From the IMG/VR virus record IMGVR_UViG_3300045988_055713, positions 1-25,438 of that record: 25,438 nt of DNA; one strand, given 5' to 3'. Both the position numbers and the translations under genes were made by a program. The DNA comes from a virus. Below, piece by piece: positions 10,959-25,438 of this stretch. A model generated the notes under the pieces. That model worked only from the letters and a program-made list of their open reading frames with translations. It searched no databases and was not told the origin of the DNA. Position 1 is the stretch's first letter, and the number at the start of each line of letters is the position of its first letter.

Positions 10959-11299
10959 AGTTCATCATCTTCATCTTCTTCATGTAAAGCACCGCCTAGC
11001 GATACAATCACTTTAATCAGTGCTTGTGTTGTGTTATTTGCTTGCTGGCAAGTTTTATTATACGTAGTCACTGCAGGACTCACATACATATTTTCTCTTC
11101 CCTTAACATATTCCTTCGTACAAACGACACCATCTTCTTCAATTTTCTTTTCCAAGCTTGTCAGAATATCAATTTGAGTCTCCAACCTCTTCAAAGTGCT
11201 TGCAAACAAAAAATTATCAATATATCCTTGTCGCTCAGCATCTTTTTTGAAATTATCCAACGATTTCTTTAGATCAATAGACTTATTCTCTTTTTTCAT
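10955..11299 (-). CDS. terS: Terminase small subunit (P27-like family)
   Basis: 114 aa with an acidic C-terminus (EEDEDDEL). Lies immediately upstream of and overlapping terL, and downstream of HNH plus the GC-rich site. Confidence 0.75.
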   Translation of the reverse strand: MKKENKSIDLKKSLDNFKKDAERQGYIDNFLFASTLKRLETQIDILTSLEKKIEEDGVVCTKEYVKGRENMYVSPAVTTYNKTCQQANNTTQALIKVIVSLGGALHEEDEDDEL

Positions 11300-11354
11300 T
11301 CCTTAATCACCACCTATTTTCCAAATTTCTACATGACTTAGAAGAATTTCTCAA

Positions 11355-11425
11355 CAGGAAAGGCCGCCCCCGCTCCGCTACCCCTTGAATCTGAACTCAA
11401 ATTTTTGACCCGGGGGTAGTTAACA
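11355..11425. other. Candidate cos (cohesive end) region
   Basis: The only strongly GC-rich island in the window: GGCCGCCCCCGCTCCGCTACCCC (11362-11384) and CCCGGGGG (11409-11416). A 7-bp inverted repeat, CTACCCC/GGGGTAG, sits at 11378-84 and 11413-19. The island lies in the 172-bp gap between HNH and terS. Confidence 0.5.
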
Positions 11426-11471
11426 ATTTTATTTTCTTCACAAATTTATCCAAAAATAAATGAGACTAACC

Positions 11472-11837
11472 TTACCATCTTTCTTCTGTGATTAAATCCT
11501 TTTCCTTTTCGCTATCTGATTTGAAATTTATAATCTTTTCAGGATGAACTTTGTTGTGACATTCGTTGCATAAGCTAATCAATTGACGATCATTGTTGTT
11601 GTAGATTGATAAAGCTAAGCTTGGATTGTCACGCAAGTGAATGATGTGATGGACTGTTTGAGCTTTAGTTATAATTCCATGTTGTTTACACAGTTGACAT
11701 TCATTGTGGTCCAAGTGTAATACTTCGGCACGTTTATGTCTCCAAACAGATGAGTTATAAAAGTTCTTACAAGCTACATTCCAATCATTTGAATCCTTGT
11801 GTTGATATAAATATTCAATCCATTCTGAGTCTGTCAT
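11472..11837 (-). CDS. HNH endonuclease (packaging-associated)
   Basis: CQLCKQHG...VHHIIHL...NDRQLISLCNECHNKVH is an HNH/zinc-finger motif. Start reset to ATG 11837 (MTDSEW) with AGAGGA 6 nt upstream; the track start is a TTG. Confidence 0.9.
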   Translation of the reverse strand: MTDSEWIEYLYQHKDSNDWNVACKNFYNSSVWRHKRAEVLHLDHNECQLCKQHGIITKAQTVHHIIHLRDNPSLALSIYNNNDRQLISLCNECHNKVHPEKIINFKSDSEKEKDLITEERW

Positions 11838-11915
11838 ATGTATTCCTCTCAATCATGCACCTATGATTCTAGGCACATGAGCGAAAGGAAAACTTAAAAG
11901 AGACTCATATGTGAC

Positions 11916-11945
11916 AATAAAAGGGAGTATCTTTTTGATACCCCC
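11916..11945 (-). terminator. Rho-independent terminator between the early/middle genes and the late operon
   Basis: Minus-strand RNA: GGGGGUAUC-AAAAA-GAUACUCCC, a 9-bp stem with one G-U, followed by UUUUAUU. Confidence 0.7.
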
Positions 11946-12027
11946 TAAGTCGCATATTTTGTAAGAACTAAATTCTTACGTATCCATTATATCAGAGATT
12001 AAAGGGTACTTTAGTACGCTTTTTGTT

Positions 12028-12507
12028 TTATATTTGTTTGATTTGTTGCTTGATTAAAGATTTCATGTGTCGATTCACGTTTGAAATATGGTATTGCATC
12101 TTCAATGATTCGTATGATTTGTTATCAAAGTAATCAAGAATAAATTGTACTTCATCACTTTGTTTTAGTTGTTCAAGATATGACATTGCTTTGCATAGAC
12201 TGTATCGCATCACTTGTAGTTCCTGGATTAATTCATCTTCATAATCAAATACTAATCCATTTGAATTTGAATGATACTTAGAGCCTGGTGCTTTGTATCG
12301 AGCATCTTCATCGACTAACTTACCTTCCCAATCTTTAACTTTGATTGTTATTCTCTGCCAATTCAACGGACTTTTATATCCTCTATCATAATTCAATAAA
12401 TCAGATACTTTACTTAATTTATTTTCAATCTCAGTGATACGTGCAATATACCAATCAATATTGCGTATCTGTCTGATTACATACGATGCATCTTCGTTTG
12501 ATATCAT
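12028..12507 (-). CDS. Late-gene transcriptional activator candidate (RinA/ArpU-like, sigma region-4-like HTH)
   Basis: C-terminal SDEVQFILDYFDNKSYESLKMQYHISNVNRHMKSLIKQQI parallels the RinA pattern (xFIxEYYFNKKxL...IHISDRTAHRIKRKI). It is the last gene before HNH/terS. Start at ATG 12507 (TAATG overlap). Confidence 0.5.
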   Translation of the reverse strand: MISNEDASYVIRQIRNIDWYIARITEIENKLSKVSDLLNYDRGYKSPLNWQRITIKVKDWEGKLVDEDARYKAPGSKYHSNSNGLVFDYEDELIQELQVMRYSLCKAMSYLEQLKQSDEVQFILDYFDNKSYESLKMQYHISNVNRHMKSLIKQQIKQI

Positions 12508-12737
12508 TAACCTAAATATCCTTTCGCTCTGTATGCACATTCTAATTCATAAACTGAAAGCTTGTGATCTAAAAGATATTGAACTTCTTTTTTCATATTT
12601 CTTTTATTGATTTGCTCAGCTAAAAATAAATCTTGCTTTGTTAATTTGTATTGATAACAAATTGTAGCTAGTTCATCAATCTCTCTTTTAGATTGTGCTG
12701 TGCTCGATAATATTTGAGTATTTGCCCATGCACTCAT
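12507..12737 (-). CDS. Hypothetical protein (76 aa)
   Basis: SD is AAGGAAG before ATG 12737. Coupled to the downstream gene. Confidence 0.6.
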   Translation of the reverse strand: MSAWANTQILSSTAQSKREIDELATICYQYKLTKQDLFLAEQINKRNMKKEVQYLLDHKLSVYELECAYRAKGYLG

Positions 12738-12741
12738 TCAA

Positions 12742-12963
12742 TCACTTCCTTTTCTTATTTTCGCTTACAACTACTGAACCACGATGCCATGATTCATCAC
12801 CAGTATGGTATCTTCTTTCGTTGGCTCTTTCCTGGTGTTTCTTATATTCTTTTAATCCACAATTTTCACGTTCTAATTTAACGATGTAATCAATAGTCTT
12901 TTGCATACATTCTCTAATGTGCTCATCATGAATATCATTTACTGTTACATTCATTTTCGACAT
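12742..12963 (-). CDS. Hypothetical protein (70-73 aa)
   Basis: ATG 12954 has GAAGGA 8 nt upstream and is more likely than ATG 12963. Basic C-terminus. Confidence 0.55.
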   Translation of the reverse strand: MSKMNVTVNDIHDEHIRECMQKTIDYIVKLERENCGLKEYKKHQERANERRYHTGDESWHRGSVVVSENKKRK

Positions 12964-13249
12964 CCTTCAAATACTCAAATTCTTTCAACAACTCGCTCTT
13001 TGTTCTTTCAAACTCTGATTCGATTTGCTTTTGTACATCAATTTTAGTTTGTTTGAACCATTTCTTTTTAAATTCAGTAACTGTTTTTCTGTAAGTATCC
13101 TCACTATAATCGCAAGACTCCCACCACTCTAAATCGTGTAGCAACTTACACAAATCTTTCATCATTTCATTTAATTGAGAATCATACATTCTATCAACAT
13201 ATTCTTCTTCAATTCGACAATACATATAATTATAACTTCCACCGCTCAT
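12935..13249 (-). CDS. Hypothetical phage protein (MSGGSYNY... family)
   Basis: Start reset to ATG 13249 with GGAGGA 6 nt upstream. The MSGGSY(N/D)Y N-terminus recurs in phage ORFans, from memory. Confidence 0.6.
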   Translation of the reverse strand: MSGGSYNYMYCRIEEEYVDRMYDSQLNEMMKDLCKLLHDLEWWESCDYSEDTYRKTVTEFKKKWFKQTKIDVQKQIESEFERTKSELLKEFEYLKDVENECNSK

Positions 13250-13251
13250 TC

Positions 13252-13476
13252 TCAATCCTCCACAAATTCTATTTGTTCTCTTTCTACGCAAAATCTTGCG
13301 CCGTCATTAAATTCAATATCGAATAAATTTGTAGCACTTCCATTCCCTGTTAGCGTTTTGTGTACGTGTACAATATCACCAACTTGACTAATGTAATCTT
13401 CTTTGCTCTTGCCAGTACTACTAATTAATTCATATTCATACTTATCAATAAGGCACAGCAATCTAGCTTTACGCAT
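13252..13476 (-). CDS. Hypothetical protein (74 aa)
   Basis: SD is GAGGTG before ATG 13476. Confidence 0.6.
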   Translation of the reverse strand: MRKARLLCLIDKYEYELISSTGKSKEDYISQVGDIVHVHKTLTGNGSATNLFDIEFNDGARFCVEREQIEFVED

Positions 13477-13533
13477 TATTTGATCACCTCACAGTTTGCT
13501 AAAATTTCATTGATCGATTTTTCACATTCATTT

Positions 13534-13794
13534 CTAGTCATATTCCTTCAATTCCTCTTTAAGCTCATTTATAGCTTGCTTAACATCTTTCAAGTCTAAA
13601 TCTACATTGCTAACTAATTCTGCCATACGATTGTTAGAATAGCTCTGTAAAGCCGATTCTAGCGTTGTATGGTATGAGATAGGCTTTTGTACGTCTATCT
13701 CATTTCCTTCTTTATCCTTACCCTTTACGAACGTTACAAGAGCGAATGAACCACCGCTAGAAGTGATTGCATAATTGTTTTGTAATCTAATCAT
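13534..13794 (-). CDS. Hypothetical protein (86 aa)
   Basis: SD is GGAGAGG before ATG 13794. Confidence 0.6.
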   Translation of the reverse strand: MIRLQNNYAITSSGGSFALVTFVKGKDKEGNEIDVQKPISYHTTLESALQSYSNNRMAELVSNVDLDLKDVKQAINELKEELKEYD

Positions 13795-13814
13795 TTTTCA
13801 CAACCTCTCCATTT

Positions 13815-13952
13815 TCAAAATGATATTTCTTTGTCAACTAACTCTTGCAAACGTAAAGCATGCCTAGTATCTTCGTTCATTGGCTTACCTTCGTAATGCA
13901 TATCAAGATATTTATCTATGATATAGTTCAGGCTTTCTTGATATTTATTCAT
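13815..13952 (-). CDS. Small hypothetical protein (45 aa), absent from the ORF track
   Basis: My translation: MNKYQESLNYIIDKYLDMHYEGKPMNEDTRHALRLQELVDKEISF*. AGGAGG lies 10 nt upstream of ATG 13952. It fills an otherwise empty 164-bp gap in a tightly packed operon. Confidence 0.5.
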   Translation of the reverse strand: MNKYQESLNYIIDKYLDMHYEGKPMNEDTRHALRLQELVDKEISF

Positions 13953-13958
13953 ATGCTT

Positions 13959-14411
13959 TTAACCTCCTATAGTTGGGCAAATACAATCCCATTCATAATC
14001 ATCAAACTTAACTTCTTCATCCTTTGTAATTTCTCCGTCAATGATTTCAATAATTTGGTTGAACTGCATTCTTCTTTCAAACGCATGAATTCTCATGTCA
14101 ACTCCGTATTTTTTACAAGATTGTAATAATTCTTCCGCACTAATACCCCATGCGAATTCTGTTTCGAGTCCAATTGTAGTTTCTTCTTCATCTTCCAAGT
14201 CATCAAAATAGACATGCGAATCAACGACAAATCCTCTATACGTTCCTTTAATCCAGCATCTTCTACATTCAACATAACAATAATCATCCATCTTCAACGC
14301 TTCTAAATCTTTGCCGATACAATCAACCGGTTGTAATCCTTCTAAAACAAATTTTGTTAAATTCTCTTTTGTACCTCTCACTCTTAAGGTACCAGCACAC
14401 CAATTAGGCAT
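13959..14411 (-). CDS. Hypothetical protein (150 aa; MPNWC N-terminus, possibly DUF1281/Api92-like)
   Basis: Start reset to ATG 14411 with GGAGGA 7 nt upstream. The family hint comes only from the MPNWCxxTLxVxG N-terminus. Confidence 0.6.
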   Translation of the reverse strand: MPNWCAGTLRVRGTKENLTKFVLEGLQPVDCIGKDLEALKMDDYCYVECRRCWIKGTYRGFVVDSHVYFDDLEDEEETTIGLETEFAWGISAEELLQSCKKYGVDMRIHAFERRMQFNQIIEIIDGEITKDEEVKFDDYEWDCICPTIGG

Positions 14412-14435
14412 TTTTATTTCCTCCACTTTTCTCTC

Positions 14436-14714
14436 TCATTTCAACACGATTTTTTCCAATTCAAATCCATCTATATCACCATTACTTTTGATATGTTCAA
14501 TAATGCATTTTTTTTCGTATTCACTTAAAGTGCTGAATCTATATATAACAAAAATATACCTTTTCCAATTCGCATCATTTTTATTCACAAATATAAATTT
14601 ATGCATAAATAAATCATTCGATTTTTCGTCAAATAATCTATCTGTTTTAATCCAAAACTTTGTAGCCCCATCTGTAATATTTGTTACAATAACGGCGTGT
14701 TCCACTTCAATCAT
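14436..14714 (-). CDS. Hypothetical protein (92 aa)
   Basis: Start reset to ATG 14714 (MIEVEH..), which forms an ATGA overlap with the upstream stop and has an AAAGGAG SD. Confidence 0.6.
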   Translation of the reverse strand: MIEVEHAVIVTNITDGATKFWIKTDRLFDEKSNDLFMHKFIFVNKNDANWKRYIFVIYRFSTLSEYEKKCIIEHIKSNGDIDGFELEKIVLK

Positions 14715-15124
14715 TTTCTTTCTCCTTTCAAAAAATATTCTTTCCAACATTCTTTGGACTTCTTTTCATATTCTTTATTAAAAAAATATTTCTCAGAGTC
14801 ACAATGAAATTTACATAAAATACATTCTTTTTTCTTCTTTTTAGCAACTGCTCCAATATCAAAATTTGCCGGGCAACCATTGAGTCCATTGTTATGTGTA
14901 TATTTACAAGCTTTATCTAATGCTTTTTCAAGTACTTTAATTTCTTTTTCATATATCATTAAATCCTCATCATTTGAATCATCATTAATAATCGCGTTGT
15001 ATAAGTATTCAATACGTTCTCTGTATTCATCTTTTGTGATTTCTGATAAAGGCTTTTTAAATCCTGTAGGCAATAATTTAAATCCGAATTCTTTTTCAAA
15101 TTCATCTAAATCTTTTTCTGTCAT
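14711..15124 (-). CDS. Hypothetical protein (137 aa, Cys-rich C-terminal half)
   Basis: SD is GAGGTG. C-terminal cysteines: CKYTHNNGLNGC...CILCKFHC...C. Confidence 0.6.
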   Translation of the reverse strand: MTEKDLDEFEKEFGFKLLPTGFKKPLSEITKDEYRERIEYLYNAIINDDSNDEDLMIYEKEIKVLEKALDKACKYTHNNGLNGCPANFDIGAVAKKKKKECILCKFHCDSEKYFFNKEYEKKSKECWKEYFLKGERK

Positions 15125-15126
15125 AC

Positions 15127-15357
15127 TTACACCTCTTTATGCGCTAGCTCTCTTATGTTTCTTTTTAGAAATACAATCGTATTTTTTAACGATTCAATAA
15201 CCTCTTTATCGTCTATATCATGCACATCATAAATAAACCTAAGAGCCATTTCTAAGCCGTCCGATACTCCACTTCCATAAGTTGTACCTCTATTTTCGTA
15301 TTCTTCCATTTTAAGAAACGCAAAGTTTTCTATTTGTTTAATTTCTTCTTTTGTCAT
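15127..15357 (-). CDS. Hypothetical protein (76 aa)
   Basis: ATGA overlap with the upstream gene. Confidence 0.6.
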   Translation of the reverse strand: MTKEEIKQIENFAFLKMEEYENRGTTYGSGVSDGLEMALRFIYDVHDIDDKEVIESLKNTIVFLKRNIRELAHKEV

Positions 15358-15644
15358 ACTTCAACATCCTCATCTTTAGGCATTTCAAAAACATGAACAC
15401 CTTTATTCAATATGTAACTTTTACGTGTCACATTATCAATCGCACAATATTGCTTATCTGAAATAAATCTTTGAATTTCATCCAAAACTTTTAAGGCTTT
15501 ATCTTGTGTTGAATAGACACCTAATATGTCGATTCCTCTTTCTGAATATCCGTATATGTAATATTCACTTTTATCTTTATTGTTGTTAATTACTACTTGA
15601 TTTACATTTAACAACACTTTTTTACTTTGGCTTCTAATCCACAT
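15354..15644 (-). CDS. Hypothetical protein (96 aa)
   Basis: TAATG overlap with the dUTPase stop. Confidence 0.6.
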   Translation of the reverse strand: MWIRSQSKKVLLNVNQVVINNNKDKSEYYIYGYSERGIDILGVYSTQDKALKVLDEIQRFISDKQYCAIDNVTRKSYILNKGVHVFEMPKDEDVEV

Positions 15645-16159
15645 TAGTACCCCTCCTTCAATCTTTGATAGTTGATTTTGTTCTTTTTACAATAACATTC
15701 ATAAACTTGCTCAATCGTGAAGCCTAAGTATTCTGTAATTGCAATTAATGCTTCAACTCTATAAAGTGGAAAGCTAACCAATCTGAGAAATCCATTAATT
15801 AGCGCATCATTAGTCTTATGCATCAAATTACTTTGCTCCTTAATTCTTCTTTTAACATCAGGAGCAGAGCCTAAGCCTTCTTCACCATCATTGAAATTAT
15901 TTTGCCAACTTAATACAAAATGCCAAATATCAACTAATTCGCCTAATACATTTTCTTCATCAACTTGTGGTTGAGTTTTCTTCCACCAACACCAGTTGGC
16001 TTTTAATTCGTGAGTTAATTCGCCTACTTCATCAAGAATTGCGAAACTCAAATTCTCTTCATAAATCGTGTATAATCCGTATTCTTTCATGATAGCTTCA
16101 TCTAATTTAGCTTGCATTTTTAACATTTTTTTAATTAATTCAATTTCTTTAATTGTCAT
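15644..16159 (-). CDS. dut: Dimeric (all-alpha, dUTPase_2/MazG-like) dUTP pyrophosphatase
   Basis: ILDEVGELTHELKANWCWWKK...VDEENVLGELVDIWHFVLSW matches the ExxEL / WKWWK / ExVDxxHF pattern of dimeric dUTPases. Confidence 0.7.
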   Translation of the reverse strand: MTIKEIELIKKMLKMQAKLDEAIMKEYGLYTIYEENLSFAILDEVGELTHELKANWCWWKKTQPQVDEENVLGELVDIWHFVLSWQNNFNDGEEGLGSAPDVKRRIKEQSNLMHKTNDALINGFLRLVSFPLYRVEALIAITEYLGFTIEQVYECYCKKNKINYQRLKEGY

Positions 16160-16778
16160 GTTTCTTAATCTCTCTTTCTAAATACCATTTAGCTTTTTTC
16201 AAGTCTTGTAATTCTGTTCCTTTGAATGGAGCACGTGATACATATTTGATTACATTGCCTAAATTAAAGTTAAGGTTATGTGATTCAATATAATCAATTG
16301 GTTCAATACCGTGTTGATAGTGTTGAGGATGATTTACCATGTCTATTTCATCATCAGCTTTTTCTTCGTTAGACTTAAAACAATCTTTTGTTTTTAAACA
16401 ATTTGTCTCAGCGGCATAAGTGTTATATTTGCATTCGCAACAAGGTAGCTCAAATTCTGATAAATTGCTATATATGCATTTCATACATTCTTTCTCTTTT
16501 TTAGGCTTGAAGTAATCCTTTGCTTTCAAATATGCCATAGTATCGTGTTTATATGTTCCTTTACAATTTACGCAAGGCTCTTCAAGCTCTTCAAAATCTT
16601 CGTATACACATCCCATACATCCATTATGTTCAATTGTTGATTGCTCTTCTTTTGGTTGGAACTTATCATCATGCATTTGATAAGCTAAACTTAATTCGCC
16701 CATTTGCTCCCTGCAGTATTTACATGGTTCATCCAATTTAGATGAATATTCATATTTACATCTATTGCATTTGCTCAT
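16149..16778 (-). CDS. DUF3310-like protein with three N-terminal CxxC-x11-CxxC zinc-ribbon repeats
   Basis: C-terminal HPQHYQHGIEPIDYIESHNLNFNLGNVIKYVSRAPFKGTELQDLKKAKWYLEREI is a DUF3310-type motif. The N-terminus carries three tandem Cys4 units. SD is AAGGAG. Confidence 0.7.
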   Translation of the reverse strand: MSKCNRCKYEYSSKLDEPCKYCREQMGELSLAYQMHDDKFQPKEEQSTIEHNGCMGCVYEDFEELEEPCVNCKGTYKHDTMAYLKAKDYFKPKKEKECMKCIYSNLSEFELPCCECKYNTYAAETNCLKTKDCFKSNEEKADDEIDMVNHPQHYQHGIEPIDYIESHNLNFNLGNVIKYVSRAPFKGTELQDLKKAKWYLEREIKKHDN

Positions 16779-16781
16779 TGT

Positions 16782-17129
16782 TTATCTCCTTTTAAGTTCT
16801 TCATTGATTCCACTTTTTTGAATTGCAATTTCAATAAAGCGACGTTCAACCATTCTATACGCTTGTAACTCATCCAATTCGCCTAACAGTCTATTAACTT
16901 TGCTTTGTAGCTTTTCTAGTCTGTCATCATTAAATTGCGTTACTGCATCACCTCGTAAAAGGTTATCAATAAATTCATTCTCTGCATGAATCACATCTTT
17001 TTTGTTTTCATAACGAAAACCGTACACTTTTTCTCTGTCTCGATAATCCAATAACTTATGCTTGTTTTTTTCGACTCTTTTATCGAGATATGATTTCACA
17101 TTTTCAACTGCTTTTAATTTTGGGTTCAT
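16782..17129 (-). CDS. Hypothetical coiled-coil protein (115 aa)
   Basis: Start reset to ATG 17129 (MNPKLK..) with AAAGGAG 8 nt upstream, immediately after the recombinase stop. Confidence 0.6.
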   Translation of the reverse strand: MNPKLKAVENVKSYLDKRVEKNKHKLLDYRDREKVYGFRYENKKDVIHAENEFIDNLLRGDAVTQFNDDRLEKLQSKVNRLLGELDELQAYRMVERRFIEIAIQKSGINEELKRR

Positions 17130-17145
17130 TTTTATGCTCCTTTCT

Positions 17146-18198
17146 TTATTGCATATATTTTTCATGACTAGATTTAACATTTGAATTTTTAACTTTGGCA
17201 TAAATCAATGTTGTATCAATTTGCTCATGTCCTAACATAATTTGTACTTCCTCAATTGGCATTCCTTTATTCAATGCAACTGTTGCAGCGGTTCTTCTAA
17301 ATTTATGAGGATATGCTTCAATGCCTAGTTTTTTTCCTAAATTTCTTATCATTACTTCCAAACAACTAACATTAATTTTTTCTAAATCTGATGTGAGAAC
17401 TGGAGTGAATATGTATTCACTCTCTTTGTTTCGATAATTCAAATATTCTTTTAATTTCATTGCGCTTCTAACATTTAAATAACAAACTCGTTCTTTATTG
17501 CCTTTACCAACAACTTTCATTTCTCGCTTTTCCAGATTTAGATCACATAACTTAGCACCTGTGATTTCTCCTGCTCTGCATCCAGTTGATAAAAGAACTT
17601 CAAATAGAGCAATATTTCTGATTGTTTTTTTATATTTTGTTGTTCCCTTAATTGATTTATTTTTTTGCTTGTTAAGTTCATCACGCATCATTTCAATTTC
17701 TAATTCAGTGAATGGCTTTCTTATATTTTTGTCTTCTTTTATTTTCTTAACTGCACACATTGGATTGCTTCTTATATAGTCGTTTTCTACGAGCCATGTA
17801 AAAAACGATGAGAAATTACGTCTTTCATTATTTAATGACGTTTTCTTTAATTCAGGATAATCAAGCATACGCTTTGCAAAATGCATACGTATGTCATCTT
17901 TTGTAAAATCAACAACACTCTTTTTAATATATTCATGAAGCCATGTATTAAGGGTGTACGCATAAAACTTGATTGTTCTATCACTACAACCGTCAATTTT
18001 TTTACTAACTAAAAACATTTTTATTAAATCGTCATCATTGCTAACATAGGTTGATACTTCATTTTTACATTCAATAATTTCAGAGCCTTCAAGCGCTATG
18101 TATAGTATTCCTCTAACTTTCACTAATTGTTCAGGTTCTAAATCTTTAACTAACAATGCCATGCATTTGTTTATAAATTCATCCTTCACATAATTCAC
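17146..18198 (-). CDS. Site-specific tyrosine recombinase (phage integrase / XerC-XerD family)
   Basis: Complete catalytic set: STGCRAGEI (Arg I), GKGNKER (Lys), PHKFRRT (HxxR), LGHEQIDTTLIYAKV (His and Tyr). N-terminal SAM-like core-binding region is present. The start is uncertain (GTG 18198 or GTG 18189) with no good SD, and it overlaps the upstream ORF by 20 nt. Confidence 0.85.
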   Translation of the reverse strand: MNYVKDEFINKCMALLVKDLEPEQLVKVRGILYIALEGSEIIECKNEVSTYVSNDDDLIKMFLVSKKIDGCSDRTIKFYAYTLNTWLHEYIKKSVVDFTKDDIRMHFAKRMLDYPELKKTSLNNERRNFSSFFTWLVENDYIRSNPMCAVKKIKEDKNIRKPFTELEIEMMRDELNKQKNKSIKGTTKYKKTIRNIALFEVLLSTGCRAGEITGAKLCDLNLEKREMKVVGKGNKERVCYLNVRSAMKLKEYLNYRNKESEYIFTPVLTSDLEKINVSCLEVMIRNLGKKLGIEAYPHKFRRTAATVALNKGMPIEEVQIMLGHEQIDTTLIYAKVKNSNVKSSHEKYMQ

Positions 18199-18856
18199 AA
18201 CCTTTCACATACCACATCATCGTGCATAAAGTTTCGTTTTTTTCTTCTGCTAATGTATTGCCTTGAATAACTTTTGCAGGTATGCCACATAAATTAAATT
18301 GAACGTATGCCATATAAAAGCAGTTGTAATCTAAATCTTGAGCAGTAACTATCATCATGTCTTGATAATCAATTTTTCTTTTTTGCAATCCTTTAGCAAT
18401 TGCTAAGATGTTAGCACCACCGCCAACTGTAGGCTCACTAAGTATTATTTTTTTTCTGTCCCATTTGGTTAGCATTGACTCCGCCATAATTTCAGATACG
18501 TGAAATTGAGTGAAGAATTGTGCAGTTTTAACACTACTTGCTCCCAACATCATATATATTTCACCTAGATAATCTGATATTTCTTCGTCAAATAACATCA
18601 CTAATCGCGCTGACATTTCTGAAAACATATTTAATTGATCGTTTGTATATTTCTTCGCTATATCTAAATATTCATTCTCTAATTTATTATCAAAATAAAA
18701 TGAATTACTCATTGATAAAGCAAACATTTTAATCCAATCTTGGAATATTTGTCTTGGCTGATATCGTCCTGCCATGCAATTGATTATTTTTACGATTTCA
18801 TTCATCACGAAATTCTCACTTTCTGTAATTTGTGTATAATTACACATTTTTAACAA
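18179..18856 (-). CDS. N6-adenine DNA methyltransferase-like protein (HsdM/N6_Mtase-like) lacking catalytic motif IV; possibly truncated or non-catalytic
   Basis: The motifs occur in order: DYLGEIYMML, AQFFTQFHVSEIMAESM, LSEPTVGGGANILA (motif I), VTAQDLD, IQGNTL. The ORF then ends 23 aa later without NPPF/NPPY/DPPY. The start is uncertain: TTG 18856, ATG 18847 or ATG 18805. Confidence 0.55.
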   Translation of the reverse strand: MLKMCNYTQITESENFVMNEIVKIINCMAGRYQPRQIFQDWIKMFALSMSNSFYFDNKLENEYLDIAKKYTNDQLNMFSEMSARLVMLFDEEISDYLGEIYMMLGASSVKTAQFFTQFHVSEIMAESMLTKWDRKKIILSEPTVGGGANILAIAKGLQKRKIDYQDMMIVTAQDLDYNCFYMAYVQFNLCGIPAKVIQGNTLAEEKNETLCTMMWYVKGCELCEG

Positions 18857-18970
18857 GTGAAGGGAATGAAAGGTGAAATGTAGTTATAATCTCTATTTAT
18901 ATATATATTTATTTTTTATTTTTATTTAGAAATATAATATAACTAAGAAAATGCCTTCATACCCTTCACT
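18856..18970. repeat. Imperfect 17-bp inverted repeat flanking an 81-bp spacer of about 12% G+C (ori-like or switch-like element)
   Basis: Left arm is AGTGAAGGGAATGAAAG (18856-18872). The right arm's reverse complement is AGTGAAGGGTATGAAGG (18954-18970), a 15/17 match. The spacer has 10 G/C in 81 nt by my count. Confidence 0.7.
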
Positions 18971-18981
18971 ATTTAAGTAAC

Positions 18982-21456
18982 TTAAGTATTTTTGAGGTTA
19001 ACAAACACATTTCCATAATTCCTATGAACCTTTTCGACTGGCTTATCTGCTCGCCTAAATTCCTGTTCAATTCGTTTGAAGAATCTCTCTTTTGTTAAAA
19101 TGAACTTCTCCAAATATCCTTGGTCTAAATACCATCTTCTGTAATCCAAATAAATTTCATCAGGAGTTAATTCTTTTTCATCTTTAAAATCAAATTGTGC
19201 TGCAAACACAAATAAATGATTTCCTGCACCAAATAATTCCATATCCATATTCACATCACGAGGAATCGGAGTGTATTTATTACCATTGCGCACCAATCGA
19301 GCATATCCTTCAAGTGCATAGTTCAATATCGCACTTAGGCCTTCTCCTTCACACAAATGTTCAATGATTTGGTCATCTGCTGGAAATACCGAAATGTTAT
19401 CGGCCTTATCTTCATCGGGAGTAAACGAGTTGTACAATCTGTGTGTTGTTTTTGTGAATCGTCTTTGCCATCCATTTGTTTTATCTTTTGGATGAAAGCA
19501 TTCATTTGCATCAATAAAGATTGAAGCTCTTGGATGGAATGATACTGGTTCTTTATTTTTAACGTTTGTAGTAATCTTGTCATTCGTACATAAATTTTTC
19601 ATGATGTTCTCGTTTTCTGAAGTATCAGGCTTTGGATCGTGGAAGAAATTAACCCATTTTCCAATTAAACTCTGCAAACGAAACTCACGTGATAAGGCCT
19701 CAACTGGAATCGCACAACATAATGAATCGCCTAGCATCTTTTCAATGATTTCATTTAATTTAGACTTTCCATTTGAGCCATCACCAATCCACATCACCGC
19801 TTTACCTTCGATGTTTGTTGGATTAAATAAACTGCCTAAGTATTCCTTGAACCGATTAACCATGTTTTCTTCACCGCTTGGGTGATTTGCAAAAATTTGA
19901 TGTAGGAATAGCTTAATCTTTGAATCGTCTGCTTTAGGATTGTAGTCGTATTCCTGACAATAATCACAGTAATCTTTGATGTTGTGATTACGCTCAAATT
20001 TATATGGTTCTTCTGGATTATTCTTATCAAAATAAATCGTTCCGTTTGCCACATTGAAGCATTCTTTTTGATTAGGCATAGGCTCATTCTCATCCGTTGT
20101 CTGAACTTTGACCTTATCAATAATTGACTTCTCCTCATTATTGCGGACATCATACATACGCTCAAATGATTTACGAATGATAAATTCATTTACACTCTGC
20201 CAATGTGTACCGTTAAATCTGTACATTCCATTTGCTACATCGTGCCAAAGATCGTATTCATATTCTCGAATAAAGTCTGCAGCAATTTCATTTTGAGTTT
20301 TCGACCTATCAAGCATTTTGATAAGGTCCTTCCTATCACGAGAATTAAATGAAATGCATTCATTAATATAATCAATTACATGATTCTTTGTTTTTCGATT
20401 TAAATAAGGTGCTAATGGATTGATATATGCGTATAAGGAATCATAATCATCGAATTGACTTAGGTATTCTTTCATACCATCACGACTATGCTTTTCAAGT
20501 AATTCACTTGGTTTCAAGCCAACACAATATGCATCTGATATATCTTTAATTGGCTTTTTTCTGTATTCAGTTGGAATCGTTACGATTGTGAATTGTATGT
20601 TATGTTCAAAGCACGATTTGAACATTCTATGTGTAAATTGAGTACCACTTGAATCATTGTCGAAGCATAAGATTAATCGTTTGAAGTCTTTAGCGACTTG
20701 CATTACTGTTTGGATGTGTTTATTGCTCATTCCTGTAGCATTACATAATACTGATTCTCCTTCTTCCCAAAGAGATGCAAAATCAAATACACCCTCTGCA
20801 ATCCACAAATCATCGTTACCTCTATCTAAGGTATCGTATCCGTATAGTTCATTTTCACGATATGAACTAAAGCCAATTGTAGGCTTTTTGTATTTCGGAT
20901 AGTCTTTTGAAATTTTAGATGAGTCAAAAGCACGAGCACACCAATAAATTGGTTGACCATCTTTCCACACTGGAATGATGATTCTATCTGAATAAGGATC
21001 ATAACCACATTTATATTCATCTATAAAATCATCAAAAATTTGTCTGTTATGAAAGTATTGTCTGTGTTCAGGCTTCAAATTCTTATGATATTGCTCAACA
21101 TTTAAGCGTAAACGCTCCATGTCGGTCTTGTAATTGTCGATTTCTTCTTTACGATAATCATCATCGCCGATATTTAAACGATACAATAAATCAGAGAAAG
21201 CTTTTGAATTGTCACCGTTGTATTTTAAATAAGCATACATCGAGATAACATCTCCACCTTTTTTCGAGCTATGGCAATACCAGGAATCTTGCCAAACTTG
21301 GCATGATGTTGGATTAGTGCCGTCATGAGTAAATGATTTACATCTGCACGAATCTTCACCACTGCATCTTTGAGTTTCAATATTAAATTCATTTAATAAA
21401 TCAAAGCAGTTGATTTTGGATTTAATCAACTCGCTAGATTTTGCTCGTTTTTCCAT
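18982..21456 (-). CDS. Bifunctional DNA primase / SF3 helicase (DnaG-type Zn finger and TOPRIM, plus P4/D5-type NTPase)
   Basis: N-terminal CKSFTHDGTNPTSCQVWQDSWYCHSSKKGGDVISMY is a degenerate CHC2-like finger. TOPRIM-like LWIAEGVFDFASL and LCFDNDSSG. Walker A is WIGDGSNGKSKL. Start reset to ATG 21456 with AAAGGAG 9 nt upstream. Confidence 0.85.
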   Translation of the reverse strand: MEKRAKSSELIKSKINCFDLLNEFNIETQRCSGEDSCRCKSFTHDGTNPTSCQVWQDSWYCHSSKKGGDVISMYAYLKYNGDNSKAFSDLLYRLNIGDDDYRKEEIDNYKTDMERLRLNVEQYHKNLKPEHRQYFHNRQIFDDFIDEYKCGYDPYSDRIIIPVWKDGQPIYWCARAFDSSKISKDYPKYKKPTIGFSSYRENELYGYDTLDRGNDDLWIAEGVFDFASLWEEGESVLCNATGMSNKHIQTVMQVAKDFKRLILCFDNDSSGTQFTHRMFKSCFEHNIQFTIVTIPTEYRKKPIKDISDAYCVGLKPSELLEKHSRDGMKEYLSQFDDYDSLYAYINPLAPYLNRKTKNHVIDYINECISFNSRDRKDLIKMLDRSKTQNEIAADFIREYEYDLWHDVANGMYRFNGTHWQSVNEFIIRKSFERMYDVRNNEEKSIIDKVKVQTTDENEPMPNQKECFNVANGTIYFDKNNPEEPYKFERNHNIKDYCDYCQEYDYNPKADDSKIKLFLHQIFANHPSGEENMVNRFKEYLGSLFNPTNIEGKAVMWIGDGSNGKSKLNEIIEKMLGDSLCCAIPVEALSREFRLQSLIGKWVNFFHDPKPDTSENENIMKNLCTNDKITTNVKNKEPVSFHPRASIFIDANECFHPKDKTNGWQRRFTKTTHRLYNSFTPDEDKADNISVFPADDQIIEHLCEGEGLSAILNYALEGYARLVRNGNKYTPIPRDVNMDMELFGAGNHLFVFAAQFDFKDEKELTPDEIYLDYRRWYLDQGYLEKFILTKERFFKRIEQEFRRADKPVEKVHRNYGNVFVNLKNT

Positions 21457-21925
21457 TTTCAACTGCTCCTTTCTCTAATATTTCAACTATTTTGTTTCCA
21501 GTTTGATTTTTAGCACAAAACTGAAATTCAACATCATATACCATCTGCATTGTGTTTAGTATCTTAATTAATTGATTACCAGTAGTTGCTTTTGGTGATG
21601 TCTTTAACCTTGGATTGTGCCAATATCGAATATCATCAATACATTTAATTGCTGATGAATGTTCAATCAATACAATCACGTGTATACCTAACTCTTGTGC
21701 TCGTTCTAATTCTGCTTTGAATCGTTTATGATCATGCGTAACATTTCCAATGATTTCTTGAAGATTTTGTTTTCTATCGACAACCAAATACGGATTGGAT
21801 AAGAGTTGATAATCACCAACATAAAGCTTAGTGCGTACCAACTCATATCCTTTCTTTTTTATTTGTTCACTTAACGATTCAATAGCTTGAGGCTTTTCTC
21901 TTGTATCACAATAAATCGCATTCAT
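21434..21925 (-). CDS. ERCC4-type (XPF/Mus81-like) structure-specific nuclease
   Basis: CDTREK, then VGDYQL, then VVDRKQNLQEI, which parallels the DxRE / GDY / ERKxxxD signature with D and E swapped. Confidence 0.55.
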   Translation of the reverse strand: MNAIYCDTREKPQAIESLSEQIKKKGYELVRTKLYVGDYQLLSNPYLVVDRKQNLQEIIGNVTHDHKRFKAELERAQELGIHVIVLIEHSSAIKCIDDIRYWHNPRLKTSPKATTGNQLIKILNTMQMVYDVEFQFCAKNQTGNKIVEILEKGAVENGKTSKI

Positions 21926-22480
21926 TTAGAATGGTAAGTCGTCATTGGAAATATTGACTGGTTGAGGTGCAGTCGGTTGAGTCTGAACTGTTGGACCAGT
22001 ATATTTATCCAACTTCTTCAATTCAGGAACTTTGAATTTTCTGCTTTTAATTGTTTCAACATTAACAACTTTTTGAACAATTAAACGTGTACGCAATTCT
22101 CCTGCGTGAGCACCACCGGTTGGTACATATTCTTCTTCTTGAAGGATTAAACCGACTTTCTTTCCTTTTAAAGTTGATTCATCCCAATTCCATACATAGC
22201 CGACATTTGATTCTTCAACTGCTTTGATAAAGCCTTTAAACATTGATAAGGCCTTTTCTTTGTATGAGCGAATGAATACACCACCCCAGAAATTAATAGC
22301 TTTATATAAGTTTCGGTAGTAATCCGCAAATTCGTCTTCCGCAATATCGAATGAGACTTTCAAATATTCCTTATCTGATTCGTCTTTAGCCTCCATCAAT
22401 GTACAGATGTATCCTCCTGGTTTAAGTGAATCAAAATCACCACTTGCTTTAATTTCTTCAAAGTTTTCAATTTTCTTCAT
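21926..22480 (-). CDS. SSB-like protein (DUF669-like) with a canonical SSB C-terminal tip
   Basis: 184 aa. A Pro/Gln-rich linker (TGPTVQTQPTAPQPVN) is followed by the terminal DDLPF, as in the bacterial SSB acidic tip D-D-D-I-P-F. It lies next to the Sak4-like ATPase. Confidence 0.6.
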   Translation of the reverse strand: MKKIENFEEIKASGDFDSLKPGGYICTLMEAKDESDKEYLKVSFDIAEDEFADYYRNLYKAINFWGGVFIRSYKEKALSMFKGFIKAVEESNVGYVWNWDESTLKGKKVGLILQEEEYVPTGGAHAGELRTRLIVQKVVNVETIKSRKFKVPELKKLDKYTGPTVQTQPTAPQPVNISNDDLPF

Positions 22481-22494
22481 TTACTAAATCCTCC

Positions 22495-23166
22495 TTATTT
22501 TGAAACCTTTTTATCTAATTTATCGAATCCGTAATAATCACGAATCGTTGAATCGACTAGCTTTAAATCGTTGTCGATTTCATCCTCTTTAAACATTCCA
22601 ATAGGGCTTTTGCACGTGTCTGAACCACTGTTATGAGTTGTGAATGTGTATTTACCTTCTGTACATTTTGTCCCCAATACAATCGTTGCTAGAGACTCAG
22701 GAGACATATACTGCTCAACCATCTTGCCGACTGTTTTGGCTTTGTATGTTCCATTTGTATTGTCATATTCGTTATGCATTAAGAAATACACGATCACATC
22801 TCTAGGAGTATATCCACTGATATATTCCATTAAATCAGTCCAATGACGAGCAATCTCTGTGAATTTGTCGTAACCTTTTTCATTTGCTCTACTCATTAAT
22901 TCGAAAGCCATTAAAAATTGAGCGTCATCAACGATGTACAATTTGCATCTATCTTCGTTGACCGATAATGATTGGATATAAGATTTAATAGTCTCATATC
23001 TTTCAGTACCATTCTTGTCACGTAAATTCACGCAACTTAAATCTGATTTAAACGGCATTAATTTATTTGCCGTGTTAAAAACTAAACATTCTTCTTTTTT
23101 TAAATTCCTAAGTGAAGCTGATTTACCAGTTCCACTAGGACCAATACAAAGTACAATCTGACCCAT
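22495..23166 (-). CDS. P-loop ATPase, Sak4-like (RecA-core, AAA_24-like) recombination protein
   Basis: Walker A is IGPSGTGKSAS. Walker B is KLYIVDDAQF. About 220 aa. Flanked by a Gp157-like gene and an SSB-like gene. Confidence 0.6.
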   Translation of the reverse strand: MGQIVLCIGPSGTGKSASLRNLKKEECLVFNTANKLMPFKSDLSCVNLRDKNGTERYETIKSYIQSLSVNEDRCKLYIVDDAQFLMAFELMSRANEKGYDKFTEIARHWTDLMEYISGYTPRDVIVYFLMHNEYDNTNGTYKAKTVGKMVEQYMSPESLATIVLGTKCTEGKYTFTTHNSGSDTCKSPIGMFKEDEIDNDLKLVDSTIRDYYGFDKLDKKVSK

Positions 23167-23178
23167 GATTTAATCCTC

Positions 23179-23673
23179 CTACTTTAATGTTAAGTTAGTG
23201 TTTTCAACTAACTCTGCGCCATCAACTTTTTTGCCATTTGAAATAGCTGCTTTGATTCCAACTTTATCAATCGACCACATTTCTTTACATTTTTTGAAAT
23301 CACTAGAAATTAAATCTTCATCCAAAATATTTACTGATTTTGACTTTCTTGTTGATAATTTATTTTTAGCGGTTTCATATTTTTTGATTCCTTCATAGTC
23401 GAACATCATTAATACATATTCTTTTAGCGATTTAATTTTCTTTTCATTTTCTTTTTTTCGTTTGCTTAAATTATCAATTTCTTTTTTGATTCCATCGTTC
23501 AATGAATCAAGATTTTTGATATATCCTGAAATGCCGTCAATTTTTTCGTCAAATGCGATTTGCAAATCCATCAAATCATCTTCTTCAAATAAGATTTCGC
23601 CTGTTTCTTCATCTTCAGAAAATCCCTTTTCGATAATGTCTAAAATAGTTTTGTTAATTTCAAATAAATTCAT
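23179..23673 (-). CDS. Siphovirus Gp157-like protein
   Basis: 164 aa, acidic coiled coil (..EETGEILFEEDDLMDLQIAFDEKIDGISGYIKNL..). Sequence style and its position upstream of the Sak4-like ATPase match the Gp157 family. Confidence 0.5.
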   Translation of the reverse strand: MNLFEINKTILDIIEKGFSEDEETGEILFEEDDLMDLQIAFDEKIDGISGYIKNLDSLNDGIKKEIDNLSKRKKENEKKIKSLKEYVLMMFDYEGIKKYETAKNKLSTRKSKSVNILDEDLISSDFKKCKEMWSIDKVGIKAAISNGKKVDGAELVENTNLTLK

Positions 23674-23679
23674 ATTAAT

Positions 23680-23946
23680 TCACTCCTTTTTCAACCACTC
23701 TTTTACGAAGTAGCTATCATATTCTTTTTCAACTACACATTTTCCTTCTTTTCCAGGCATTTGATTGAACTCAAACGGAGTTACATCGATTGACTCAAAG
23801 AAGGCTTTGATTTCATTTAATTCAATTAACGCATGATTGATAAATTTAAAACCATCATCTGTGCGAATGCTCAACTTTGCTACACATTTAAATCCATCAC
23901 ACGTTTGAACTGTTTCATATCCGAAAACATAAAACTCAACGATCAT
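23680..23946 (-). CDS. Hypothetical protein (88 aa)
   Basis: Start reset to ATG 23946 (MIVEFYVF..). ATGA overlap with the upstream stop. SD is GGAGAGGAG. Confidence 0.6.
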   Translation of the reverse strand: MIVEFYVFGYETVQTCDGFKCVAKLSIRTDDGFKFINHALIELNEIKAFFESIDVTPFEFNQMPGKEGKCVVEKEYDSYFVKEWLKKE

Positions 23947-24197
23947 ATAAACTCCTCTCCACATGACGAACATTTGCGATAAACTTCAAATCCACAATCA
24001 TCATGATTTTTTTTGATAACATCTAAATCACCACCACAGAATGGACAAGTGTTATTGTTCAGGCATTCTTGGTCTAACCAATCAATATTGGCTTGAAGTA
24101 CATTTACTTCTTCTTTAAATTGTCCTGACTTTCTTAATTTATCTGCGATTTGTTGAAGTTCATGAGCTACATTATGTAAATCACTGTAATTAGTCAT
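23943..24197 (-). CDS. Hypothetical zinc-ribbon protein (84 aa)
   Basis: CPFCGG...x21...CSSCG are Cys4 pairs following an N-terminal helix. Confidence 0.6.
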   Translation of the reverse strand: MTNYSDLHNVAHELQQIADKLRKSGQFKEEVNVLQANIDWLDQECLNNNTCPFCGGDLDVIKKNHDDCGFEVYRKCSSCGEEFI

Positions 24198-24432
24198 TCA
24201 AAGGTCCTCGCATTCTTCTTAGGATTTCTTCTTTTAAAACAGTTTCAAATGCATTCGCTGCATTATTCAACGCTTTAGCTAAATCCAATTCACTCATCAT
24301 CAATGCTCTTGCAGTTTTGCTTTTATCGAACATTCCTTCAGGCTCAACTCTTAATGCGTATTTTGTATGTACTACGTTGACTCTAAAAACAATAAAATCT
24401 TCAGAATCATCATGCGTATGCTTCTCTACCAT
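24190..24432 (-). CDS. Hypothetical protein (80 aa)
   Basis: The track gives 111 aa from ATG 24525, which has no SD. The internal ATG 24432 (MVEKHTHDD..) has GGAAAGGA upstream, and the extra N-terminus would run through the inverted-repeat arm. Confidence 0.55.
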   Translation of the reverse strand: MVEKHTHDDSEDFIVFRVNVVHTKYALRVEPEGMFDKSKTARALMMSELDLAKALNNAANAFETVLKEEILRRMRGPLND

Positions 24433-24449
24433 ACATTTATTCCTTTCCA

Positions 24450-24595
24450 CTCGAACCCTACAACCTAGATACCGCACGACTAGAAAGCTGTTTAAATTTG
24501 ATATTAAATTGGAGAAAATAATCATGAATCAAATACAATGCCTAATTCGTATGTATCGTGATTTAATGTGCGATACCTAGGTTGTAAGATTCGAG
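24450..24595 (-). repeat. Long inverted repeat: 28-nt arms, 24/28 complementary, 90-nt loop; candidate structured RNA on the minus strand
   Basis: Arms are 24450-24477 (CTCGAACCCTACAACCTAGATACCGCAC) and 24568-24595 (GTGCGATACCTAGGTTGTAAGATTCGAG). The four mismatches (24456/24589, 24458/24587, 24469/24576, 24472/24573) are C-A or A-C on the plus strand, and therefore G-U pairs in the minus-strand transcript. Confidence 0.75.
24503..24532 (-). promoter_or_regulatory. Possible sigma-A-type promoter inside the inverted-repeat loop
   Basis: Minus strand has TTGATT (24532-24527), an 18-nt spacer, then TTTAAT (24508-24503). The region is AT-rich, so a chance match is quite possible. Confidence 0.25.
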
Positions 24596-24644
24596 AATTT
24601 CATTTAAAATATAAGTAGTGATTTATTTCATCACTGTGTGACTT

Positions 24645-24929
24645 TTACTTGCAGGTTTGAGTCACTTTTTTTGTGCTTTTTCTTAAACGAATTAAGTTAT
24701 CAATATAAGGTTGAAGTTCTAAAACTCTAATGACCTTAGCAGTTGGATAACCAAATTCATTCTTTTCAATGCCTAAGTTTTTGAAAACTTTACCAACAGT
24801 TGAACTAGCACATCCAATAACTTTAGCTGCATCAATTTGTGAGATGTAGGCTTGTTTCGTTAAGATTTGCAATTTGTGTTCAACATCTGCATCGTATTCA
24901 ACACTTAACATTGGTTCTATCACTCTCAT
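24645..24929 (-). CDS. HTH DNA-binding protein (94 aa)
   Basis: ISQIDAAKVIGCASSTVGKVFKNLG is an HTH-like segment. SD is AAGGAGG, 9 nt upstream of ATG 24929. Confidence 0.6.
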   Translation of the reverse strand: MRVIEPMLSVEYDADVEHKLQILTKQAYISQIDAAKVIGCASSTVGKVFKNLGIEKNEFGYPTAKVIRVLELQPYIDNLIRLRKSTKKVTQTCK

Positions 24930-24947
24930 ATCACATCACCTCCTTTA

Positions 24948-25244
24948 CTAAAATCTGATTGATTGAATCACATTACATACATATGCGGTTGCAATCAGGC
25001 ATCCAATCGTCAATATAACAGATGCAAATAACATCCAATTCGCTACACGTTGTTTTCTTTTCAATTTAATTTCTTTTCTTTCCAACTCTGCATATTTATG
25101 CATCATCAACGTGTATTCTGTACGATGCGGATTATTAGCAAATTCTGCTACATCAAGTTGTTGTTCCGTTACAATTTCGGCTTGTTTTGTTCTTGATCTA
25201 GAACTAGAACTAGCTTTTTTTGTTGAATTTGGCATTTTTTTCAT
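24948..25244 (-). CDS. Tail-anchored small membrane protein (95-98 aa)
   Basis: The basic Ser-rich N-terminus and a helical middle are followed by one C-terminal TM segment (WMLFASVILTIGCLIATAYVCNVI). ATGA overlap with the cro-like stop. ATG 25235 has the better SD spacing. Confidence 0.6.
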   Translation of the reverse strand: MKKMPNSTKKASSSSRSRTKQAEIVTEQQLDVAEFANNPHRTEYTLMMHKYAELERKEIKLKRKQRVANWMLFASVILTIGCLIATAYVCNVIQSIRF

Positions 25245-25438
25245 CCTTTCTTAATCAATAAATCTAAATTGATAACTAATGCATCTGCTATCTTTTTCGC
25301 AGATTTATCTGAGATTGGCTTTCCGTTGTAGGCTTTGCTTATCGTCGTAAGTGATACACCTGATTTTGTTCGCAAAACCATTTGAGTCCATGAACGTGAT
25401 AAGCATTCATTAATTAACTTTTTCTCGTCCAATATCAT
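25241..25438 (-). CDS. XRE-family HTH regulator (Cro-like)
   Basis: SWTQMVLRTKSGVSLTTISKAYNGKPISDKSAKKIADAL is an HTH_3 pattern. The ATG coincides exactly with the window edge, so the true start may lie further upstream. Confidence 0.65.
   Translation of the reverse strand: MILDEKKLINECLSRSWTQMVLRTKSGVSLTTISKAYNGKPISDKSAKKIADALVINLDLLIKKG

Follow-up and report, generated by a model that had tools for sequence, protein, structure and literature searches.

A conserved long-range RNA helix with interchangeable inserts between early genes of uncultured temperate gut phages, a candidate RNase III site

RNase III sites are known from the early transcripts of phages, as in T7 (R0.3-R1.3), lambda (the N leader and sib) and SP82 (early RNA). 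In T7 and SP82 the site is a compact hairpin, which in many cases has an internal loop and is cut once. RNase III also excises the intervening sequences of 23S rRNA, without religation of the ends. The mRNA targets mapped for this enzyme in Bacillus subtilis are duplexes of 10-36 bp that form over long distances within one molecule, the two cuts lying up to 505 nt apart (PMC11780869). The Correia/NEMIS elements of Neisseria are units of about 100-150 bp with inverted repeats of about 26 bp, which are co-transcribed with genes, form a hairpin that is bound or cut by RNase III, and can give rise to promoters at their ends (PMC2649163). Lambda OOP and DicF of the Qin prophage are small RNAs that lie in, or antisense to, the early/immunity operon, with RNase III taking part in their action or maturation (PMC5069750; bioRxiv 10.1101/2023.04.14.536235). 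Here we describe an element that is most likely a new family of this known kind of phage mRNA signal, unusual in that a conserved bracket encloses interchangeable contents.

The locus lies in a stretch of 25,438 nt of viral DNA (the window), which is part of a temperate siphovirus-like phage. All of its long ORFs are on the minus strand, hereafter the gene strand. Upstream of the helix, this strand carries a Cro/C1-type HTH ORF, a 98-aa ORF and a 94-aa HTH-like ORF; downstream of it follow an 80-aa ORF, a zinc-ribbon-like ORF, Gp157, a Sak4-like annealing protein, SSB, an ERCC4 nuclease and a primase-helicase and, farther on, an HNH endonuclease, the terminase and the structural genes. In related contigs the series integrase, cI, cro and antirepressor is found farther upstream. 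The 94-aa HTH-like protein has no sequence match in Pfam or PDB, and its AlphaFold model (pLDDT 59) was too poor for a fold search. Among 50,697 deposited phage genomes we found no DNA match to the window, to the element or to the intergenic regions of its relatives. The host is probably Holdemanella, since one homologue bears this name at NCBI and a search of 185,579 species genomes matched the arm in one Holdemanella MAG only. The window also holds a tyrosine-recombinase gene (integrase-like, phrog_1; 17146-18198, minus strand) among replication and nucleotide-metabolism genes; as the integrase of the relatives adjoins cI, this gene would be a second recombinase.

An earlier, sequence-only reading of the window had proposed an inverted repeat with 28-nt arms in the gap after the HTH-like gene, with four mismatches that would all become G-U pairs on the transcribed strand. 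Both parts of this proposal were borne out. An inverted-repeat search gave arms that are 24/28 (86%) complementary and 90 nt apart (Table 1), and the four non-Watson-Crick positions read U-G, U-G, G-U and U-G on the minus strand, so that the RNA helix runs unbroken for 28 bp and exceeds two helical turns, roughly, of dsRNA on the transcribed strand. The gene geometry had likewise been read correctly, with 18 nt from the helix end to ATG 24432 and a gap of 212 nt between the stop codon of the HTH-like gene (24645) and that ATG. ATG 24432 is the start in all 80-aa homologues; an in-frame upstream ATG at 24525 (ORF 24190-24525, minus strand), which would add 31 residues to the 80-aa protein, was rejected as it lacks an SD and is not conserved among insert types. 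The genes on both sides of the gap are on the same strand, and no terminator-like site was found between them on the gene strand, which is consistent with read-through but is no proof of it.

Folding of the minus-strand RNA of 24430-24644, which the same reading had suggested, gave a stable structure of -62.4 kcal/mol (z = -7.5, reached by 0 of 200 shuffles). The plus-strand RNA of this interval gave -47.1 kcal/mol (z = -3.5), and the gene strand folded as DNA gave z = -4.2. When the whole window was scanned for uninterrupted helices of Watson-Crick and G-U pairs with a span of up to 460 nt, the 28-bp helix was the longest on the minus strand and in the window as a whole, the longest on the plus strand being only 17 bp. 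In 40 dinucleotide shuffles of the window the longest helix measured 15-23 bp (median 17), and none exceeded 23 bp. The arm sequence occurs a single time in the window. A search of Rfam returned no match to the element at the gathering threshold, and its E-value mode gave chance-level matches only for all five of the insert types described below.

Table 1. Positions of the helix, its flanking features and the further helices of relatives (window positions; those of H1 and H2 refer to the related locus L020)
Feature	Coordinates	Strand	Sequence and remarks
94-aa HTH-like gene	24645-24929	minus	helix always after it, even with different downstream genes
5' arm of RNA helix	24568-24595	minus	CUCGAAUCUUACAACCUAGGUAUCGCAC; C/A/U-rich; more variable arm among relatives
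Insert ("cargo", type A) inside helix	24478-24567	minus	90 nt; replaced in relatives by unrelated sequences (types B-E, about 85-190 nt)
3' arm of RNA helix	24450-24477	minus	GUGCGGUAUCUAGGUUGUAGGGUUCGAG; G/U-rich; highly conserved; its end (24450) 1 nt before the SD
SD and start codon of downstream 80-aa gene	SD 24441-24448; start codon 24430-24432; gene 24190-24432	minus	SD = GGAAAGGA
Candidate antisense promoter	24582-24610	plus	TTGTAA-17-TAAAAT; -35 within the complement of the 5' arm; predicted
Candidate antisense small-RNA body	24616-24672	plus	hairpins 24616-24636 and 24638-24665; U7 run 24666-24672; predicted
H1	1525-1551 / 1793-1819	wobbles on gene strand	about 26 bp, insert about 245 nt
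H2	1826-1852 / 1941-1967	wobbles on gene strand	27 bp, inserts of 50, 88 or 330 nt

Related loci were collected by three routes, namely homologues of both flanking proteins, a pattern derived from the 3' arm, and a pattern derived from the upstream flank, the last of these to avoid selection on the 3' arm. DNA patterns were needed, a protein-guided scan of the genome collection having returned nothing and scans of the viral collection the nearest relative only. About 45 loci from related uncultured temperate phages, 30-odd of them distinct, carry the same helix, and in every locus with the HTH-like gene it lies directly 3' of that gene. The insert, by contrast with the arms, falls into five unrelated types. 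Counted between the 26-bp arm cores, these measure 94 nt (type A, that of the window), 103 nt (B), 89 nt (C, related to A in its 5' half only), about 120 nt (D) and 187 nt (E). Each type is well conserved within itself, and the insert has been replaced at least five times. Full elements gave the same closing helix in every fold, with the SD unpaired, and in types D and E the helix may extend farther with small bulges. From the helix end to the next SD there are 1-2 nt in types A-C and 12-14 nt in types D and E.

The genes that follow the helix differ as well. In types A-C the next gene belongs to the 80-aa family, and in types D and E the next genes are a 56-aa gene and those for a Phg_2220_C protein, DnaN and PcfK/PcfJ. 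The homology between the phage groups breaks exactly at the end of the 3' arm, indicating that helix and upstream gene move together and that the helix marks a junction of modules. Between loci with identical arms, the DNA of the HTH-like gene can be as little as 59-66% identical. Remoter HTH homologues (53-57% identity) were also collected, but their element is again that of type D, so no deeper divergence is gained. Since the insert has been replaced repeatedly and the downstream module is not the same in all groups, the conserved unit is, as far as these comparisons tell, the helix and not its contents.

The inserts themselves fold into sub-hairpins. The only motif that they have in common on the gene strand is ATTGT followed, after 13-20 nt, by CUCC-like pyrimidines, which on the opposite strand corresponds to GGAG and then ATG or TTG. 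In the window this arrangement goes with an antisense small ORF that has an SD (24524-24580, plus strand; MNQIQCLIRMYRDLMCDT). We rejected it as a conserved protein because it has 18 aa in type A, 24 in B and 6 in C, is reduced to a bare ATG-TAA in locus L018, and is absent from most type D loci. Promoter-like sites inside the inserts differ by type and are no commoner than in shuffles.

For the analysis of pairing, 14 distinct arm pairs were aligned over their common core of 26 bp, with the arms joined by a fixed GAAA linker. Among these arm pairs, which represent about 45 genomes, 17 of the 26 base pairs vary: 11 on one side only, 4 on both sides, and 2 only via unpaired cells; the other 9 are invariant. 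Pair 11, for instance, is A-U in types A-C and G-C in D and E, pairs 25 and 26 differ between A, B and D, and pair 8 is C-G, U-G or U-A. A standard pair is formed in 99.2% of the 363 cells, compared to 25-44% in slid controls in which the partner was shifted by 1-3 columns, and no shuffle reached the observed paired fraction or the observed covariation score. On the gene strand every sequence forms 4-7 G-U pairs and has one mismatch at most, and the same positions make 4-7 C-A mismatches on the opposite strand. The covariation that the sequence-only reading had looked to relatives for is therefore clearly present, with compensatory double changes at 4 pairs, and the outcome that would have spoken against that reading, namely equal disruption of pairing on both strands, did not occur, as pairing is kept on the transcribed strand only.

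The kind of substitution points in the same direction. All substitutions in the arms are transitions (for example, 10 differences between A and D and 9 between A and E), whereas in the adjoining gene the same comparisons give transitions and transversions at 28:30 and 48:61, a ratio of about 1:1. In the C/A-rich 5' arm, C<->U and A<->G changes drift opposite G or U, while the G/U-rich 3' arm is more constrained; in loci that had not been chosen via the 3' arm, G<->A and U<->C changes are found there too, with pairing kept. The sole disruptive change is T21->C in the 5' arm, which makes a C-A mismatch on the gene strand in loci L010, L012, L014 and L016. This change is present with both type A and type B inserts, which suggests recombination within the arms. 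L006 and L017 lack one base at the outer end. These alignments show a helix that is maintained by selection, and show on which strand it is maintained. An RNA-level element on the minus strand is well supported by them, since the arms are conserved, pairing is kept on the gene strand alone, and double changes are compensatory. The arms are also conserved as sequence (81% between A and D, with only 4 double changes), which would be compatible with sequence-specific recognition or with a second function such as an antisense -35 box.

Two further helices, H1 and H2 (Table 1), are found in relatives L009-L013 and L020. Their place is just beyond window position 25438, in the gap that separates the antirepressor gene from the next gene; the start codon of the gene after this gap falls on the last base of the window. 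H2 ends about 10 nt before the next SD. From L013 it is cleanly missing, with a direct repeat, CATCAG, bounding the junction. H1 and the window helix have an 8-bp block in common, 5'-AAUC(C/U)UA(U/C) paired with GUAGGGUU, including the same U-G wobble, and the 5' arms of H1 and H2 have UGAUGUAGU in common. These blocks could reflect common descent or could be a recognition determinant.

Three other observations concern RNA structures or repeats elsewhere in these phages. The gap of 125 bp directly after the primase-helicase gene of the window holds a 21-bp inverted repeat (18850-18870 / 18956-18976), 18/21 complementary with mismatches that are not wobbles, around an 85-bp stretch that is very rich in A+T; its role may be that of a replication origin or of a further bracket helix. 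In phages with type D or E inserts, the Rfam family DUF3800-I RNA scored above its gathering score at L033:768-892 (plus strand, 56 bits) and at L040:12940-13064 (minus strand, 54 bits). L051 has a DUF3800 gene in the same neighbourhood.

The reading that we prefer, with a probability of about 0.55, is that of a cis-acting long-range RNA duplex, formed within the early polycistronic transcript, that host RNase III cuts. The presence of the enzyme in the host is assumed from the near-universal presence of rnc in bacteria. The arms would pair in the early polycistronic minus-strand mRNA to form a duplex of 26-28 bp, perfect apart from its G-U pairs, which would close off the variable insert. A duplex of this length would be a substrate of host RNase III, and staggered cleavage in it would excise the insert and split the upstream message (from the cro-side genes to the HTH-like gene) from the downstream recombination/replication message. 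The latter would be left with a short 5' leader, starting a few nt before its ribosome-binding site. The helix would then be a cistron boundary, or insulator, and would decouple one half of the early operon from the other in stability and translation. Cleavage, its consequences and the co-transcription of the flanking genes are inferred. A duplex of 26-28 bp is within the substrate range known from B. subtilis (PMC11780869). The two additional helices of the same build in relatives strengthen the case. What counts against processing alone is that a plain hairpin would suffice for it, and the large, repeatedly replaced inserts are left unexplained.

The inserts are central to a second reading, in which the helix would be a processing bracket that releases a small regulatory RNA, different for each insert type. 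This reading can accommodate cleavage by RNase III, but the function would then reside in the cargo. DicF, which is cut out of the dicB operon, and the intervening sequences, which are cut out of 23S rRNA, are RNAs removed in this way from a longer transcript. Conserved arms around five unrelated inserts, each conserved within its type, are what such a reading expects, the same pattern recurs at H2 with inserts of 50, 88 and 330 nt, and both the sub-hairpins and the short pyrimidine motif CUCC, common to all types, fit it. Nevertheless we consider it unlikely, as no insert matches any Rfam family, no covariation is demonstrable inside the inserts, where variation is too small, and the absence of H2 in L013 indicates that at least the cargo of H2 is dispensable.

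It is also doubtful that the helix works as a structure without being cleaved, either by bringing the ribosome-binding site near the end of the upstream gene (coupling or standby) or by blocking exonucleases, in the 5'-3' or the 3'-5' direction, and RNase Y. Stable 5'-proximal structures and nearby SDs stabilise mRNA in Firmicutes, and in all types 1-14 nt separate the end of the helix from the SD, which is unpaired in the fold, as this reading would have it. However, a cell with RNase III would hardly leave a perfect duplex of 26-28 bp uncut, and an SD distance that is 1 nt in some types and 12-14 nt in others argues against a tight translational mechanism.

More speculative is the idea that long G-U-rich helices, that is H1, H2 and the window helix, are generic "brackets" through which interchangeable RNA cassettes enter the early operon and are cut from it again. 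If this were true, each of the five insert types would be a regulatory RNA of its own, sense or antisense, and the types would vary between phages as immunity regions do, for instance in phage-phage competition or in host control.

On the plus strand, the 5' arm overlaps a candidate antisense RNA resembling oop, for which we find moderate support in the sequences. The putative promoter reads TTGTAA-17-TAAAAT in types A-C and TTGCA(A/G)-17-TATAAT in D and E, at the same position and spacing. A hairpin and U-run follow 45-55 nt after the promoter-like site, at the stop codon of the HTH-like gene; in the window, the U7 run overlaps this codon. This hairpin folds more stably as antisense RNA (-11.7, -16.0 and -15.6 kcal/mol) than as RNA of the gene strand (-6.1, -7.7 and -12.6 kcal/mol, respectively). 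Type D has a canonical antisense terminator, and the unit of types D and E, with its TATAAT -10, is the clearer one. We nonetheless regard it as improbable that the main role of the region is antisense control in the manner of lambda oop, with a predicted RNA of 45-55 nt acting against the 3' end of the HTH-like gene and the conservation of the arm reflecting a promoter with its -35 in the arm. Promoter-like sites held at one position with 17-nt spacing in divergent types, together with a downstream hairpin and U-run favouring the antisense strand, speak for a module of this kind; yet promoter-like hexamers are no commoner here than in shuffles, and the module accounts for 6 nt of one arm only and not for a two-arm helix of 26-28 bp with wobbles on the gene strand. 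Such a module can also coexist with cleavage by RNase III.

Identities at the level of DNA fare worst. Cruciform extrusion is unlikely with a spacer of 90-190 nt, and a ssDNA hairpin on the gene strand has no obvious role; the strand that folds is also the one that is transcribed. That the element is a MITE or Correia-like relic, an inverton, a pair of HTH operators or the hairpin of a ssDNA replication origin is very improbable: the 28-bp terminal inverted repeats around about 100 bp do resemble Correia/NEMIS (PMC2649163), the second tyrosine-recombinase-like gene is 6 kb away, and the gene strand folds as DNA too (z = -4.2), but there is one copy in the window and one per phage contig, with the one match in 185,579 species genomes, there is no target-site duplication, the insert is never inverted, the arms never exchange their C/A-rich and G/U-rich character, and transition-only change compatible with one strand is unexpected for protein-binding sites. 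The flanks, AAATT / TGGAA in type A and ATTTT / ATAGA in type D, have no direct repeat of the kind left by a MITE. As for an inverton, no insert is the reverse complement of another, and the character of the arms is constant in about 45 assemblies. The sequence-only reading had offered as its alternative paired operators around an internal promoter (TTGATT-18-TTTAAT), which found no support, since this site is found in the type A insert only, the inserts of types B, D and E being unrelated, and the transition-only, one-strand G-U pattern of the arms is not expected of operators. A palindrome-like motif, TTGATTCATGATT, was tried as an operator; it is not enriched and does not resemble the repeats of the cI-cro region. 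A retron msr-msd was rejected as well, with no RT found in the part that was searched, the early and replication region 9282-25438, the neighbours there being small proteins, Gp157, Sak4, SSB and the ERCC4 nuclease.

Uncultured temperate phages of a common human-gut Firmicute thereby gain a well-supported family of structured RNA that Rfam does not contain. Together with H1 and H2, it suggests early operons that are organised post-transcriptionally by several long-range duplexes, in the manner of T7 but with distant arms and replaceable contents. Its strand-specific wobbles are an unusually clean sign, readable from sequence, of which strand is functional. If cleavage were confirmed, helices of this kind would be natural cistron insulators for Gram-positive hosts and a place to look for phage-encoded small RNAs.

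Like the sites of T7, lambda and SP82, the window helix would be an intercistronic helix of an early polycistronic transcript, one of several per operon (here H1, H2 and the window helix). Those sites set mRNA ends beside ribosome-binding sites, and we propose the same for the window helix. In contrast to T7 and SP82, the arms here are 90-330 nt apart around variable cargo, and there is no sequence similarity. The intervening sequences of 23S rRNA also have a conserved stem, made by flanking inverted repeats, and a variable interior, which in their case is dispensable; they lie inside rRNA helices, whereas the window helix lies between protein genes. Correia elements are multi-copy, dispersed and flanked by a TA duplication (PMC2649163), and the window element is single-copy and syntenic, has no duplication and shows strand-specific wobbles. 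The candidate antisense RNA follows a small HTH gene as oop follows cII; it has no sequence relation to OOP or DicF, and its expression is only predicted. Finally, the duplexes that RNase III cuts in B. subtilis are, like the one proposed here, in Firmicute mRNA, with arms tens to hundreds of nt apart; U-G wobbles are tolerated in them and both strands of the duplex are cut (PMC11780869). They were mapped experimentally (PMC11780869), whereas cleavage of the window helix is deduced from sequence, and the window helix differs from them in being intercistronic, phage-borne, at the long end of their range, and conserved around an insert that can be replaced.
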